From Syntrophales bacterium (lineage in GTDB: Bacteria; Desulfobacterota; Syntrophia; Syntrophales; UBA2251), in contig DAOPOS010000008.1 in NCBI GenBank assembly GCA_035358035.1, positions 7,724-71,723 of the forward strand: a stretch of 64,000 bases of DNA, in the 5' to 3' direction. How positions within the stretch are numbered: the stretch's first letter is position 1; each line of letters begins with the position of its first letter. Made by a program: the position numbers and the translations under genes. The notes beneath the pieces are model-generated. The model saw only the letters and a program-made list of their open reading frames with translations, had not been told where the DNA came from and ran no database searches. Below, piece after piece: positions 8,737 to 14,691 of this stretch.

Positions 8737-9204
8737 TCAGGCCTTCCCCTTGCCGGCGGGTTTGTCCGTGTCGTGAAAGAGGTCGAAAAAGGACTGGAAG
8801 GCCGGGAGCGCCGCGATCGACGTCTGGGTCATCTTGGAGAGGTCCATCCCGAGGCTGAGCCATTTCCGGAACTGTTCGTCCGCCGCCAGCTTGTAGGAGA
8901 GGTAGTTCTTCAGCGTCTGCTCGAGATAGTGGTCGAAGAATTCGACCAGGACGGTTTCACCGTACTGAATGATCAGGTGCAGCAGGGGAACCGGCAGCAG
9001 GCTGTTTTTTTTCCTGGATTCCTCCAGGATGATCTGGGTGAGCGTGAAGGCCGTGACGTCTTCGGCGGTTTTTGCATCGACGACTTCCACGCGACGCCCC
9101 TGCCGGATGACCTGCATGACGTCGTCCAGGGTCACGTAGGCACTTCTCTCCGTGTCGTAGAGGCGTCTGTTGGTATATTTCTTCAAGCGCAGTTTTTCGG
9201 CCAT
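8737..9204 (-). CDS. phaR: PHA synthesis repressor PhaR family
   Basis: N-terminal KKYTNRRLYDTERSAYVTL and EDVTAFTLTQIILEE match the PhaR DNA-binding domain; lies within the pha cluster. Confidence 0.9.
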   Translation of the reverse strand: MAEKLRLKKYTNRRLYDTERSAYVTLDDVMQVIRQGRRVEVVDAKTAEDVTAFTLTQIILEESRKKNSLLPVPLLHLIIQYGETVLVEFFDHYLEQTLKNYLSYKLAADEQFRKWLSLGMDLSKMTQTSIAALPAFQSFFDLFHDTDKPAGKGKA

Positions 9205-9490: not shown

Positions 9491-9784
9491 ATGGAACAGG
9501 AAAAGATTGCGAAGCAGATGATCGAATTTCACAAAACCACGTTCGACAACACCTTCAGTGCCGTGGAGATTCTCCAGGAGCAGACGGAAAAGATGGTCGG
9601 CATGTTTTTGGACCAGTCGCCGTGGTTCCCGGCTGAGGGGAAGCAGGCGGTCAACGAGTGGTTGAAGACCTACAAGGAAGGACGAGAAACGTTCAAGGAC
9701 AGCGTCAACGAAAGCTACAAGAAGGTGGAAGAATATCTGGGCGCCATCGAGAAGAAGGCCCCCAGGGCGAAGGCGGGCAAATAA
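9491..9784 (+). CDS. Small helical protein, phasin-like (paralog 1)
   Basis: 97 aa from ATG 9491 after AAGGAGG; amphipathic helical pattern; divergent from phaR; 44/83 identities by eye to the next ORF. CDS is solid, function is inferred. Confidence 0.7.
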   Translation: MEQEKIAKQMIEFHKTTFDNTFSAVEILQEQTEKMVGMFLDQSPWFPAEGKQAVNEWLKTYKEGRETFKDSVNESYKKVEEYLGAIEKKAPRAKAGK

Positions 9785-9854
9785 GATCGCGTAACGAACC
9801 TCCGCCCGGGAAGCGATGGCCGGAGGGGGGCAAAAACGGTGAAAGGAGAATGAC

Positions 9855-10133
9855 ATGGAACCGAAACAGATGGCGAAGCAGATGATGCAGTTCAACAAGG
9901 CCGCTTTCGACAACACCTTTAACGCCATGACGGTGCTGCAGGATCAGGCGGAGAAGATGATGAACAGCGTGATCGAGCAGAGCGCCTGGATGCCCGCGGA
10001 AGGCAAGAAGGCCCTGTATGACTGGCTCAAGGCCTACAAGCGGGGACGCGAGGACTTCAAGGCCGCGGCGGACGACAATTACAAGAAGGTCGAAGCGTTC
10101 TTTGCCGGCCTGGAGAAGGGCAAGGGCGCCTAG
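9855..10133 (+). CDS. Small helical protein, phasin-like (paralog 2)
   Basis: 92 aa, RBS AAGGAG; shares AKQM..F.K..FDNTF and PAEGK.A...WLK.YK.GRE.FK with paralog 1. Confidence 0.7.
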   Translation: MEPKQMAKQMMQFNKAAFDNTFNAMTVLQDQAEKMMNSVIEQSAWMPAEGKKALYDWLKAYKRGREDFKAAADDNYKKVEAFFAGLEKGKGA

Positions 10134-10248
10134 GGTCGCCGGCGGCAACCCTGTCCCGACGGGGGGATGACGAGGGGCTTCCCCTGCATCGCGACGACGA
10201 CCGCCGTCGCACCGCCGGATGTCCGCTCTGCCGGAGGATGGAAACGTC

Positions 10249-10734
10249 ATGGACGCAAGATTCTATGAGTTCTGGGTCCGGTTTTTTTCGTCCCTGGCGC
10301 AGGGACGGAACCCCTGGGAAGATTGGATTCCCGGGCGGACCCCGGCGGCCGGCGGCGCCGCCGACTTCGCGGAATTCTTCCGCGGGATGGACGGATGGGG
10401 GCGCCGGGCGGAAGGCGACCTGCCGGGCGGGGAGCTGTGGCAGGCGTCGGCGGAGGCGTTTGAGAAATCGCTCAAGGACTTCCTCGCCCTCTTCGACGTG
10501 GTTTCCCGGGAGGATTATCGGGCCCTGCAGGACGAATGCGCGGCCCTGAAGGAAAAGGTCGCGAGTCAAGAAAAGACCATTGCGGGCCTGAAACGGCGGC
10601 GCGGAAGGAAAGCGGGCGCCTCCCCGGAGGAAACGGTGGAACAGCTCCGGGAGGTCATCCGCAAGCAGAATGAGGAATTCCAGTCGCTCATGAAGACCGC
10701 GTCCGATCTCTTTGAAGGGCCCCCGACATCCTGA
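10249..10734 (+). CDS. Hypothetical coiled-coil protein, possibly PHA granule-associated
   Basis: About 161 aa; FDVVSREDYRALQDECAALKEKV heptads; follows the phasin-like pair on the same strand. Start uncertain (10219 or 10249). Confidence 0.6.
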   Translation: MDARFYEFWVRFFSSLAQGRNPWEDWIPGRTPAAGGAADFAEFFRGMDGWGRRAEGDLPGGELWQASAEAFEKSLKDFLALFDVVSREDYRALQDECAALKEKVASQEKTIAGLKRRRGRKAGASPEETVEQLREVIRKQNEEFQSLMKTASDLFEGPPTS

Positions 10735-10791: not shown

Positions 10792-11217
10792 TTATGGCTT
10801 CGCCTTGGGCGGGCTGACCAGGGCCTCGCCGTCGAGAACGACGGTGCCGTCCTGGTTGGTGCAGGTGGTCTTCAGGCGGACACGGTTCTTCTCGGCCAGC
10901 ACCTCGATGACCTCCACCCGGGCTGTGACGGTGTCGCCGAAGCGGACCGGCGCCAGAAAGCTGAGCGACTGCTTCAGGTAGATCGTGCCGGGGCCGGGGA
11001 GCTGCATGCCCAGCAGGTTCGAAATGAAGCCGGCGGTGAACATGCCATGGGCGATCCGGGTTTTGAAGAAGGTGTTTTTGGCGTAGGCCTCGTTGATGTG
11101 GGCGGGATTCAGATCCCCCGTGATCCCGGCGTAGAGATAGATGTCCGTTTCCGTCACGGTCTTCGAAAATTCGGCGGCGTCGCCCACCTTGATCCGATCG
11201 ATCGACTTACCGTTCAT
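10792..11217 (-). CDS. phaJ: MaoC-family (R)-specific enoyl-CoA hydratase
   Basis: Hydratase 2 motif YAGITGDLNPAHINE (catalytic D and H), IAHGM, PGPGTIY, FLAPVRFGD. Confidence 0.88.
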   Translation of the reverse strand: MNGKSIDRIKVGDAAEFSKTVTETDIYLYAGITGDLNPAHINEAYAKNTFFKTRIAHGMFTAGFISNLLGMQLPGPGTIYLKQSLSFLAPVRFGDTVTARVEVIEVLAEKNRVRLKTTCTNQDGTVVLDGEALVSPPKAKP

Positions 11218-11246: not shown

Positions 11247-12293
11247 CTAAAACCAGCAGCGGTGACTCCAGATTTCATCCTTGAGTTCCTTCATGTCGCT
11301 CTTGAGCATCAGGTAGAGGCCGGCGTTCTGGATGGCCAGCCCCCCCTGGTAGGCCAGGGCGGTGACCAGCAGGATTTCATCCTCCGTAAACTCGCGGGCC
11401 ACGGCGCTGTACAGCCGGAGAACGCCGATCACCCGTTCCTTCGACTTGATGGGAACGCTCAGGATGGTGACGATGCCCTCCGCCTTTTTTTCCTTCTTGT
11501 ACTGGACGCCCTTGTCCGTCGAGGCGTTCCGGACGACCACCGGCTTTCCCTTCAGGGCCTCGGCGATGCTCTTTTCCGCGGAAATCGGCCCCTTGTTGAG
11601 GTATTTCTCGCTGAGCCCGCAGCTGGCGACGAGCTTCAGGGTGTTGCTCTCCTCGTCCAGTAGACGGATCGAGGCCGCCTTGACCCCGATCGCCTGGGAG
11701 ACCTCGTAGCTCAGGGTCTGGAGGATGTCCTTGATGTCGAGGCTGGAGTTGATGCTGGCGGCCAGATCGAGGAAGATCCGGGTGTTCTCCCGCAGCCTTT
11801 CGACCAGCCGCGCGGTTTCGACCGCCACCCCGCCCTGTTCGGCCAGAACCGTCAGGAATTCGATCTCCTCGGCGGAGAAATCCCTCACCTTGGCCGTATA
11901 CAGCGAGAGGGTGCCGATGAAACGGCCTTTGACCCGGACCGGAACCACCAGAATGGAGGCGATGCCTTCCGCCCTTTTCGTCTCCCGGTTTTCCACCCCG
12001 GGATCGGAAGCGGCGTCGCGGAAGTGGAGGTACCCCTTTTTCAGGAGGAGGGGGATTTCCTTCTTGACGTGCGCCAGTCCCGCATGGACATAATTTTTTG
12101 AAAGGCCCGTCTGGGCGACGGGGACGTAGGTTCCCTTCTCCTCATCCATCAGGAAAAGGCAGGCCGCCTTGCCCCCCATGGCCTCGAGGACGCCCTGAAC
12201 GATCAGCTGCAGGATCTTATCCCGTTCCAGGGTCGTTCCCAGGGCCCGGCCGATCTTGACGATGGTCCTGAAATAATTGTTTTGCTTGGTCAT
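11247..12293 (-). CDS. Stand-alone tandem GAF-domain protein
   Basis: Two internal repeats (SILVVPVRVKGRFIGTLSLYT...FSAEEIEFLTVLAEQGG / TILSVPIKSKERVIGVLRLYS...FTEDEILLVTALAYQGG); no output domain. Confidence 0.85.
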   Translation of the reverse strand: MTKQNNYFRTIVKIGRALGTTLERDKILQLIVQGVLEAMGGKAACLFLMDEEKGTYVPVAQTGLSKNYVHAGLAHVKKEIPLLLKKGYLHFRDAASDPGVENRETKRAEGIASILVVPVRVKGRFIGTLSLYTAKVRDFSAEEIEFLTVLAEQGGVAVETARLVERLRENTRIFLDLAASINSSLDIKDILQTLSYEVSQAIGVKAASIRLLDEESNTLKLVASCGLSEKYLNKGPISAEKSIAEALKGKPVVVRNASTDKGVQYKKEKKAEGIVTILSVPIKSKERVIGVLRLYSAVAREFTEDEILLVTALAYQGGLAIQNAGLYLMLKSDMKELKDEIWSHRCWF

Positions 12294-12357: not shown

Positions 12358-13593
12358 TTATTTATTCACCGCCCGCTTTGCCGGCCGGAGTCTCTCACTC
12401 TGAAGCCTTTTTTTCTTCGGGGGACGCGCCGGGGCCGGCCGGCCCTTCCCCCGCGCCGCTTTCCCGGGGGTGAACTTGACGATCGCCGCCCCTTTCGATG
12501 CCGGCCGGACGTCCGGCTCGTCCCTTTCCATCAGCCAGCGCGCGATTTTGGGTGCAAATTCTCGCTGGCTCTTGGAACTGACATAGATCCCGATATGGCC
12601 GGTATCGAGATTGACGTCCTCCGTATCCCGGCTGCCGACGTGCCGGGTGAGCTGTTCGCAGGCCGCCGGCGGGACCAGGTGATCGTACATGCCGTAGAAG
12701 TTCAGAAGCGGCATCGTGATTTTCTTGAGATCGACCCGCTTGCCGCCCAGTTTCATCTTGCTCTGGATCAGGAGATTCTTCTTGTAGCAGTCGTTGATGA
12801 ACTGCCGGAAGGTCTCGCCGGGGACGTCGGGGCTGTCGAAGATCCACTTCTCCATGCGGACGAAGTTTTCCACGAAGGGCTTGTTGTCCGCGTTCTCCAG
12901 GAAACCGACGTATTTGTCGATCATGAGGCGGGCCGGGTTCAACAGCAGAAACCCCAGGTTCATCAGATCCGCCGGGATGTTGCCGAAGGTGTCGACGATC
13001 CGGTCGGCGTCGAGGGCCTTCATCCAGATGTGGAGCAGGCCGGTGTCGGTGTCGAAGTGGGTCGGCGTCACCGTCGTGATCAGGTTCTTGACCTTTTCCG
13101 CGTGGAGCGCGGCGTACATGACGCAGAACGAACCGCCCATGCAGATTCCCATGAGGTTGATCCGGGGCAGGTTGTGCTTCCTGCGGATGAAATCCACCGC
13201 ATGATCCAGATAGCCGTTGACGTGATCGTCGATGGTGAGAAACCGGTCCTTCCGGGAGGGATAGCCCCAATCGACCATGTAGAGATCGATGCCGTCCCGG
13301 AGGAAGTTCTTGACCACGCTCCGGTCCGGCTGGAGATCCAGCATGGTTTCGCGGTTGATCAGGGCGTAAACGACCAGGAGGGGGGTCTTGAGCCTGGCCT
13401 CGCCTTCGAGGCGGTAGTGCTTCAGCCTGACGCGGTCTTCCTCGTAGACGACGTCATAGGGCGTGGACGCGATCTCGGTCGACAGCTCGCTGAGCAGGAC
13501 CTCCGACACCTTGGTGACCCGCGCCTGCGCCTTTTCCGTGTCTTCGGCCAGGCTGGCCAGAATGAGATCGAGGGGAATCTTGGGCTGATCCAT
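12358..13593 (-). CDS. phaC: Class III PHA synthase subunit PhaC
   Basis: PLLVVYALINR, lipase-box Cys GICMGG, Asp in YGMYDHLVP, His in DTGHIG, MEKWIFDSPDVPGE; adjacent to phaE. Confidence 0.95.
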   Translation of the reverse strand: MDQPKIPLDLILASLAEDTEKAQARVTKVSEVLLSELSTEIASTPYDVVYEEDRVRLKHYRLEGEARLKTPLLVVYALINRETMLDLQPDRSVVKNFLRDGIDLYMVDWGYPSRKDRFLTIDDHVNGYLDHAVDFIRRKHNLPRINLMGICMGGSFCVMYAALHAEKVKNLITTVTPTHFDTDTGLLHIWMKALDADRIVDTFGNIPADLMNLGFLLLNPARLMIDKYVGFLENADNKPFVENFVRMEKWIFDSPDVPGETFRQFINDCYKKNLLIQSKMKLGGKRVDLKKITMPLLNFYGMYDHLVPPAACEQLTRHVGSRDTEDVNLDTGHIGIYVSSKSQREFAPKIARWLMERDEPDVRPASKGAAIVKFTPGKAARGKGRPAPARPPKKKRLQSERLRPAKRAVNK

Positions 13594-13626: not shown

Positions 13627-14520
13627 TCAATCCGTGTTCAATTGCCTCTCCAGCTCCCGCACCCGCTTTTTCAACTGGTGAAGATCCCGGTAGAGCGCGT
13701 CGACTTCCTTGTGGGTGGGCACGGGCAGGAGCTGCAGGATATCCTGAACAACCTCGTTTTTGGCGATAATGAATTCCGACAGCTGATTGAACATCTCGCC
13801 GAGTGCCTGGTTGTACTCCGGCGACTTGAAGAGCGTCATGAAATGGCCTTCAAGGATCTTGACCCACAGGTTGTAGTACTCCTTGGCCTGCTTCGGAACC
13901 TTCCCCTGCTGCGCCAGCTTTTCAACCTCCTGCTGCATCACCTTGGCGGTCTGCTCGAAGGGGAGGTTGAGCAGGGAAAAGAATTCCGCGCTCGTTGCCT
14001 TGAGCAAGGCGAGCTTGTCGAAGAGCAGGTTCATCCGCTCCTGATAGAATCGGGTCAGACCCAGCTGGGGGATGTAAAAGAACTGACGGATCTCTTTTTC
14101 GTAGATGTCCTTCAGCGTCTTGAAGAACTCCTGGTCCAGGTTCTCGAAGTGGTAGGCCTCGACCTTCCGGCCGATCTTGCCGGCCTTCTCGATGTTGACC
14201 TTCTGAATCTGAAAGCAGGTGTCCCAGGAGGCTTCGGCGACCTTGAGAAACAGGTCGGGGAGGGCGTCAAGACTCTTTGATGCGGCGCTCGCCGCGGCCG
14301 GATCGCTCATCGTGGTGGAAAGCGACTGCCACATCTTGAGGGCCGTTTCCATCGATTCGAGGGACCGGTTGCGCGGCGGTTTCTGGGTGGAGGGCCCCGC
14401 CGCGGTCCCCGTCGGGGGCGGCACCATTTTCAGGAGCGAGGTCCACAGATCCGCCCCCGCCTTGATCCAGTCGGGGGGAAAAAGCCCGTCCGGGGCTTGA
14501 CCCTGCTGCGTCTCGTCCAT
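13627..14520 (-). CDS. phaE: Class III PHA synthase subunit PhaE
   Basis: PQLGLTRFYQE, YYNLWVKILEGHF...SPEY, LPVPTHKEVDALYRDLHQLKKRVRELE; directly upstream of phaC. Confidence 0.9.
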   Translation of the reverse strand: MDETQQGQAPDGLFPPDWIKAGADLWTSLLKMVPPPTGTAAGPSTQKPPRNRSLESMETALKMWQSLSTTMSDPAAASAASKSLDALPDLFLKVAEASWDTCFQIQKVNIEKAGKIGRKVEAYHFENLDQEFFKTLKDIYEKEIRQFFYIPQLGLTRFYQERMNLLFDKLALLKATSAEFFSLLNLPFEQTAKVMQQEVEKLAQQGKVPKQAKEYYNLWVKILEGHFMTLFKSPEYNQALGEMFNQLSEFIIAKNEVVQDILQLLPVPTHKEVDALYRDLHQLKKRVRELERQLNTD

Positions 14521-14691
14521 CGCACACCTCATGAGCCGGCAATGCCGCCCGGGGGATGGCGCCTCCCCCGCGCCCTTCTCTGTCTGCACGCGAAAAAAGG
14601 CCCTGCACCGATCCCGTGACGCGGAAGGTCAGGCGGCAAGATTGAGCAGGAACGACCCTGAAACGACGATTGATGAATATATCCAAACGAT

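Follow-up and report, generated by a model that had tools for sequence, protein, structure and literature searches.

A tandem-GAF protein encoded directly behind phaE-phaC as a probable PHA accessory protein and candidate ligand-sensing regulator in syntrophic and sulfate-reducing Thermodesulfobacteriota

The window analyzed here, a 64,000-nucleotide stretch of DNA from a Syntrophales bacterium, carries a PHA locus whose minus strand encodes the class III synthase subunit PhaE (13627..14589; PF09712, 1.5e-25), a class III PhaC downstream of it (12358..13593; 436 bits with TIGR01836, whose cut-off is 365.3), a protein made of two GAF domains (11247..12293) and a PhaJ-like, MaoC-type (R)-specific enoyl-CoA hydratase of 141 residues (10792..11217; PF01575, 6e-25). 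The tandem-GAF gene runs from an ATG at 12293 to a stop at 11247 and specifies 348 amino acids (MTKQNNYF...DEIWSHRCWF); a GGAG lies 8-11 nt before the ATG, and the homologs share the same start methionine. The original prediction, made from the letters of the sequence, had described a 348-residue protein composed of two GAF repeats and a tail ending in WSHRCWF, an architecture that the open reading frame and Pfam confirm throughout. Its coordinates were likewise right (the strand, which it did not give, is minus), and the gaps are exactly 64 nt to phaC on the upstream side and 29 nt to phaJ on the downstream side. Because a consensus scan of the minus strand between phaC, the tandem-GAF gene and phaJ found no promoter-like or terminator-like site, co-transcription of the three genes is plausible.

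Beyond phaJ, two phasin-like paralogs and a 171-residue coiled-coil protein are encoded on the plus strand (9491..10734), convergent with the synthase operon, and a PhaR-like regulator, read solely from its N-terminal sequence MAEKLRLKKYTNRRLYDTE..., is encoded on the minus strand (8737..9204). The homolog of that regulator at the Desulfonema magnum locus carries PF07879 (PHB_acc_N), and such homologs recur at related loci; homologs of the phasin-like and coiled-coil genes are found within a few kb at most of them. Genes for a CoA-transferase and a patatin-like esterase are also present at the window’s PHA locus. The window’s PhaC is 411 residues long, with a basic tail (12358-12522) that continues past the approximately 350 positions of the TIGR01836 core.

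Two stretches of the tandem-GAF protein match the GAF superfamily models of Pfam (PF01590/PF13185/PF13492), with values well above the respective cut-offs (GAF_2, 6.2e-33 and 114 bits against 28.6; GAF, 5.2e-32 and 112 bits against 22.4; GAF_3, 2.1e-23), and no domain other than GAF was matched in Pfam or NCBIfam. Aligned over 164 residues, one half of the protein shows 38% identity to the other. As delimited by the Pfam GAF and GAF_2 matches and by predicted secondary structure, GAF-A occupies approximately residues 24-158 (11820..12224, minus strand, as for all segments of the protein), and GAF-B, the better conserved of the two, approximately residues 185-322 (11328..11741). In an AlphaFold2 model built from a 22-sequence alignment (mean pLDDT 82.7, pTM 0.63), the domains are joined by a 42-residue connecting helix (residues 141-182; 11748..11873), and GAF-B is followed by a C-terminal helix (residues 304-347). 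The extension past the GAF-B core (residues 323-348; 11250..11327), a heptad-patterned helix with a WF-COOH end, is presumed to be the output element; the confidence of the model is low over the last ten residues, and the tail has a pLDDT of about 58.

The predicted structure has a GAF fold (Foldseek probability of 1.00 to many GAF structures), and its best Foldseek matches are the tandem-GAF segments of PDE5A, PDE2A, PDE6 and CyaB2 and the GAF-PHY segment of phytochrome, with E-values of 1e-15 to 1e-17 and sequence identities of 14-19%; the best profile match is PDE5A, at 6e-17. The arrangement of the PDE and CyaB2 modules (GAF-A, a connecting helix, GAF-B and then a C-terminal signaling helix) is found in the window protein as well. 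In the PDE and CyaB2 proteins, however, a catalytic domain follows the module, which is a receptor for cGMP or cAMP, whereas the window protein lacks an output domain and stops about 25 residues past GAF-B in its conserved WF tail, with a coiled-coil stub at the place of the catalytic domain.

By sequence, the nearest solved domains are the GAFs of PtsP (EI-Ntr; 3ci6 and 3trc) and a Geobacter GAF (3e0y), and the closest curated relatives are the GAFs of PtsP/EI-Ntr and of NifA, a similarity that is generic. In both cases the GAF part alone matches, at scores far below those demanded for the full-length families (60.5 bits against 583 for PtsP, NF008283; 59.7 bits against 528.85 for NifA and other sigma-54 activators, TIGR01817). 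PtsP and NifA also differ from the window protein in having phosphotransferase or AAA+/HTH outputs, in acting at the level of the PTS or of transcription, and in being encoded outside synthase operons. The window’s own genome has no PtsP-type EI-Ntr above the cut-off: its best match to the PtsP model (G000:C35:9306-11027, outside the window; positions 169-738, 409 bits against 583) comprises the EI part only, so that a canonical GAF-bearing EI-Ntr was not detected in it.

The closest functional analog is probably to be sought among stand-alone GAF sensors such as NreA of Staphylococcus. NreA is a single-GAF sensor encoded in nreABC, which binds nitrate and acts on the histidine kinase NreB. 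The likeness, which is one of analogy, would lie in an output-less GAF protein that is encoded beside its target, binds a ligand and exerts its effect through contact with another protein; NreA contains one GAF domain rather than two, and the searches that were run detected no specific sequence relationship between the two proteins.

Among 77 orthologs, conservation peaks in GAF-B, above all in the block GLSEKYLNKGPISAEKSIAEAL and in the motifs VQY and EGI, which were assigned to lid and pocket elements from the secondary-structure string and not from coordinates. The pocket motif GLSxxYLxKGP is common to paralogs in unrelated contexts and to giant multi-GAF proteins, and, being shared with generic GAF repeats, it does not reveal the identity of a ligand. 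Residues N233-K234 and F302-x2-D305-E306 of GAF-B can be picked out by eye, at a spacing unlike that of the N-K-Xn-F-X3-D-E motif. No cysteine is invariant or nearly invariant in the family alignment and no histidine is invariant in the GAF cores, the sole invariant histidine lying in the tail; this pattern argues against catalysis of the free methionine-R-sulfoxide reductase (fRMsr) type and against covalent attachment of a chromophore, and both assignments were rejected.

In a search across 5.8 billion proteins, the many close homologs proved to be of two kinds: some have two GAF domains and about 348 residues (57-99% identity; Syntrophales, Smithella and Syntrophus), others three GAF domains and about 512 residues (510-514; approximately 50% identity; D. 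magnum and Desulfococcaceae). The additional domain of the three-GAF kind, inserted after GAF-A and before GAF-B, has the look of a second copy of GAF-B. In the databases these proteins are labeled only as ‘GAF domain-containing protein’ or, wrongly, as ‘diguanylate cyclase’ or ‘PtsP/GAF’.

The C terminus carries the signature of the family. All of 80 orthologs end in WF, within a tail consensus of [W/Y]-x-[H/Y/F]-[R/K]-x-W-F-COOH, and the strict pattern is present in 120 of the 121 closest proteins (the remaining one reads FSHRSWF). About three heptads precede the tail, with hydrophobic residues at -22, -19, -15, -12, -8, -5 and -1 (an a/d-type spacing), and an aspartate at -16 is nearly invariant in the orthologs. 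Generic GAF proteins are without this tail: among the best 150 representatives drawn from 1.84 billion clusters at 50% identity, only 13 have it, and the others are giant multi-GAF proteins or generic ones. Even those members with the tail that have diverged furthest (44-52% identity) are encoded beside phaC (L103, L108, L109 and L110) or beside a phasin-phasin-phaJ array (L106), whereas a two-GAF paralog that lacks the tail adjoins hydrogenase genes; the tail thus marks the PHA-linked clade.

Gene order was compared at 80 species-representative loci that had been chosen through the tandem-GAF gene. Upstream DNA is available for 75 of these loci, and at each of the 75 the gene immediately before the GAF gene, on the same strand, is phaC; phaE-phaC is present at all 69 that have at least 2.3 kb of upstream sequence. 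The distance from the phaC stop to the GAF start has a median of 14 nt and is 100 nt or less in 75 of 76 cases, with several overlaps (including those at L046 and L077). Most loci also have genes for PhaR (at 1-6 kb), for phasins and for the coiled-coil protein no more than a few kb away. This linkage with phaE-phaC extends across Syntrophales, Smithellaceae, Desulfobacterales, Desulfomonilia, Syntrophorhabdus and Desulfatiglandaceae. Orthologs unlinked to pha genes, which the original prediction had named as evidence that would speak against it, were looked for, and the outcome is clearly the opposite, gene-neighborhood linkage being essentially invariant.

The three-GAF genes occupy the same slot behind phaE-phaC and encode the same WF tail (L081 10001-11539, D. 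magnum CP061800; L111 5001-6533; L112 5001-6545). L111 is a bare phaE-phaC-GAF operon, with no pha gene after the GAF gene, and at another three-GAF locus the phaC stop and the GAF start overlap. At the D. magnum locus, phaJ is closely followed by two genes for PilZ-domain proteins. The only case seen of a family gene that is not directly behind phaC is at L106 (1418-3873; P0168, 44% identity), where two phasin-like genes are followed by phaJ and then by the GAF gene, and where the 4.9-kb contig contains neither phaE nor phaC. A further candidate exception, P0127 (L103), was rejected after tblastn showed the C terminus of a PhaC directly upstream on the plus strand; the 50-residue minus-strand gene called there (L103 2-151) is a gene-calling artifact at the end of the contig.

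Two alternative functions can be weighed against this gene order. One is control of monomer supply through PhaJ, by which the tandem-GAF protein would gate the conversion of enoyl-CoA, from beta-oxidation or from the benzoate pathway, into (R)-3-hydroxyacyl-CoA. It draws on the finding that phaJ is the gene directly after the GAF gene at 57 of 72 loci (mostly with gaps of 10-130 nt) and on L106, where the gene stays with phaJ and the phasins and phaEC is not adjacent; however, phaJ is not adjacent at the other 15 of the 72, operons consisting of phaE-phaC-GAF only exist, and the distribution of the gene follows a PhaC subclade (see below), all of which makes such a role quite improbable. The other is an indirect control of transcription, with the ligand-bound GAF protein sequestering PhaR or another regulator and thereby serving as an anti-repressor of phasin or pha expression. 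The proximity of phaR at most loci is compatible with this, and stand-alone sensors that act upon a regulator are known, as in the case of NreA and NreB; nevertheless, it is phaC and not phaR to which the gene is linked, in many cases so closely that stop and start codons overlap, the minimal operon at L111 carries no pha gene after it, and the protein has no DNA-binding domain. We regard an anti-repressor, too, as decidedly unlikely.

Because the loci described above were picked through the GAF gene, unbiased counts were taken from a sample of 401 genomes of the phylum, in which full-length orthologs score above 320 bits and other GAF proteins at 210 bits or less. An ortholog is present in 24 of the 401, and in 23 of these 24 a class III PhaC that scores above the cut-off is encoded as well, without exception next to the ortholog and on one contig with it (Fisher exact p = 7e-25 for the association across the 401 genomes); the remaining genome is 79% complete, and its copy of the gene is truncated and has an internal stop. 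In genomes that lack PhaC, the gene is essentially missing. One genome (G386; C56 and C68; L098 and L099) has two complete phaE-phaC-GAF sets. In another (G264 C1; L096 and L097), a second phaC paralog is located far from the main cluster, and no phaE or GAF gene was detected with it.

Synteny and phylogenetic profile together led us to reject a chance placement in the operon. They also bear on the reading that the protein has some unrelated housekeeping role, or is an enzyme of GAF fold (for example, fRMsr), and merely sits there: the noncommittal database annotation would agree with such a protein, and single-domain GAF enzymes do exist, but an adjacency that is invariant over deep divergence, the near-complete restriction of the gene to genomes with PhaC and the lack of a conserved cysteine render the idea barely credible.

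In a PhaC tree obtained by a quick IQ-TREE search, all GAF-linked PhaCs fall into one clade (SH-aLRT 100), and none of the PhaCs in the other class III clade is accompanied by the GAF gene. Seven PhaCs within the GAF-linked subclade lack it: those of six genomes, in which no ortholog was found anywhere in the genome, and the second PhaC copy of G264. The existence of these subclade members indicates that the tandem-GAF protein is not needed for synthase function, and that it is an accessory rather than a core component. Judged from the tree, the gene was acquired close to the base of the GAF-linked PhaC lineage and has been lost occasionally. The PhaCs across the subclade are mostly 380-450 residues long, and since the GAF-less ones are extended as well, the PhaC tail does not track the GAF gene; an informal look at ORF lengths and matched ranges of GAF-plus and GAF-minus PhaCs within the subclade showed no clear difference between them. 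One open frame around a PhaC match (G346:C62:995-2032) is 638 residues long, about 250 more than usual, and could be a PhaE-PhaC fusion or merely an open upstream frame in GC-rich DNA.

From this body of evidence, we conclude that the tandem-GAF protein is very probably a dedicated accessory protein of the PHA system. That it is furthermore a ligand-sensing, post-translational regulator that acts by protein contact is the functional reading toward which we lean, by a modest degree. Most likely, by analogy with other tandem-GAF modules, the protein would form a dimer; a small metabolite or nucleotide would occupy the GAF pockets, of which that of GAF-B is the best conserved; and the resulting change would be relayed by the coiled-coil stub at the C terminus to the aromatic and basic tail, which is invariant (W-x-H-R-x-W-F-COOH). 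That tail would constitute a minimal output, touching a partner for which PhaEC is the strongest candidate and PhaJ, PhaR or the granule surface are weaker ones, and polymer synthesis would thereby be tuned post-translationally to the metabolic state of the cell. PhaEC is favored over PhaJ because phaE-phaC-GAF forms the constant unit, while phaJ is not adjacent at 15 of 72 loci. This mechanism goes beyond the architecture, the tail, the gene linkage and the dispensability in some lineages that the analysis shows: we infer that the protein dimerizes and binds a ligand, and likewise which partner it has, what the tail does and in which direction synthesis would be regulated. Counted against this reading are the pocket motifs common to generic GAF repeats, the GAF-less PhaCs of the subclade, the absence of phaEC near the gene at L106 and the low pLDDT of the tail; in addition, in work by Hai et al. 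from 2004, the PhaEC of Desulfococcus multivorans alone reportedly gave PHA in heterologous hosts, in only small amounts.

Some of the same features could be accommodated by a granule scaffold or adaptor, in which the GAF domains would serve as a dimeric body and the aromatic tail as an anchor to the PHA surface or to PhaC, and which would organize the number, size or localization of granules in the manner of PhaM or the phasins, without any response to a ligand. The invariant aromatic C terminus, the amphipathic helix, the constant company of genes for granule proteins (phasins, PhaR and the coiled-coil protein) and a ligand pocket that is indistinguishable from those of generic GAF repeats would all suit such a protein. 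Yet conservation is strongest in the lid and pocket segment of GAF-B and not just in the tail, the protein matched none of the phasin or PhaM models, and GAF domains with pockets conserved in this way usually bind ligands; we rate a scaffold as unlikely.

A bolder form of the preferred reading, that of a ligand-sensing regulator acting by protein contact, is put forward tentatively, as a possibility that we do not favor: the protein could be the ligand-gated third subunit of a distinct class III subclass, PhaE-PhaC-GAF, docking on PhaEC through W-x-H-R-x-W-F and serving as an allosteric on-off switch of polymerization that answers to a central metabolite (2-oxoglutarate or glutamine, for instance, or else an acyl-CoA, CoA or a nucleotide). 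Were this the case, it would represent the first direct small-molecule allosteric control module to be described for any PHA synthase.

As to the signal, 2-oxoglutarate or glutamine may serve at most as a lead, by analogy with the PtsP and NifA GAF relatives and with the classic control of PHA by carbon and nitrogen status: the GAF domain of PtsP senses glutamine and 2-oxoglutarate, and the PTS-Ntr system controls PHB synthesis in Azotobacter (PMC7204398). PtsP is also the sole connection between a GAF domain and PHA that was found in the literature (PMC7204398). Within the library searched, no paper linked a GAF-only protein to the PHA synthase genes phaC or phaE, and among the curated models of Pfam and NCBIfam none names the tandem-GAF/WF-tail family; on both counts, the family libraries and the literature agree with the statement in the original prediction that no GAF-only protein is found among the described PHA genes.

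The accessory proteins PhaR, PhaP phasins, PhaM, PhaF, PhaD and PhaQ resemble the tandem-GAF protein in being encoded in or near pha clusters, and they modulate synthase activity, granule formation or expression. The protein nevertheless has no match to the PHB_acc_N, phasin, PhaM or related models of Pfam and NCBIfam, and we know of no PHA accessory protein that is a small-molecule-sensor domain protein of the tandem-GAF type. Known control of PHA operates on transcription (PhaR, PhaD, PTS-Ntr and sigma factors), through granule proteins (phasins and PhaM) and on substrate supply; to our knowledge, no dedicated small-molecule sensor encoded inside a synthase operon has been described. We therefore consider the proteins analyzed here a new and well-delimited family, in which the logic of a stand-alone sensor would be applied to PHA synthesis, and suggest the name ‘PHA-linked tandem GAF’ for it.

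The family has been kept together with phaEC among Thermodesulfobacteriota that are syntrophic or reduce sulfate, organisms that live near the thermodynamic limit and in which the storage of carbon and reducing equivalents needs tight gating. If its members are indeed ligand-controlled regulators of the synthase, they would offer a testable handle on when these anaerobes store PHA, a recognizable class III subclass for the purposes of annotation, and a portable switch for engineered bioplastic production.

Relatives outside the family have features of their own. The output-less two-GAF paralog P0255 (L104 8001-9095; L105 4038-5132) ends in a different aromatic tail, MWKWYEWGRHLP, and is encoded divergently from hydrogenase and NADH-dehydrogenase-type genes (NiFeSe_Hases, Fe_hyd_lg_C and Complex1_51K), and further short GAF-only families also have helix ends rich in W, Y and F; there are hints here of a general design, a GAF module plus a miniature aromatic output, that recurs in other gene contexts. 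Many of the top-scoring non-family relatives are giant proteins of 1,000-5,700 residues (for example, P0124, with 3792, and P0241, with 5699), in which up to 16 stretches match the two-GAF query and which probably consist of many repeats of the same GAF subtype.
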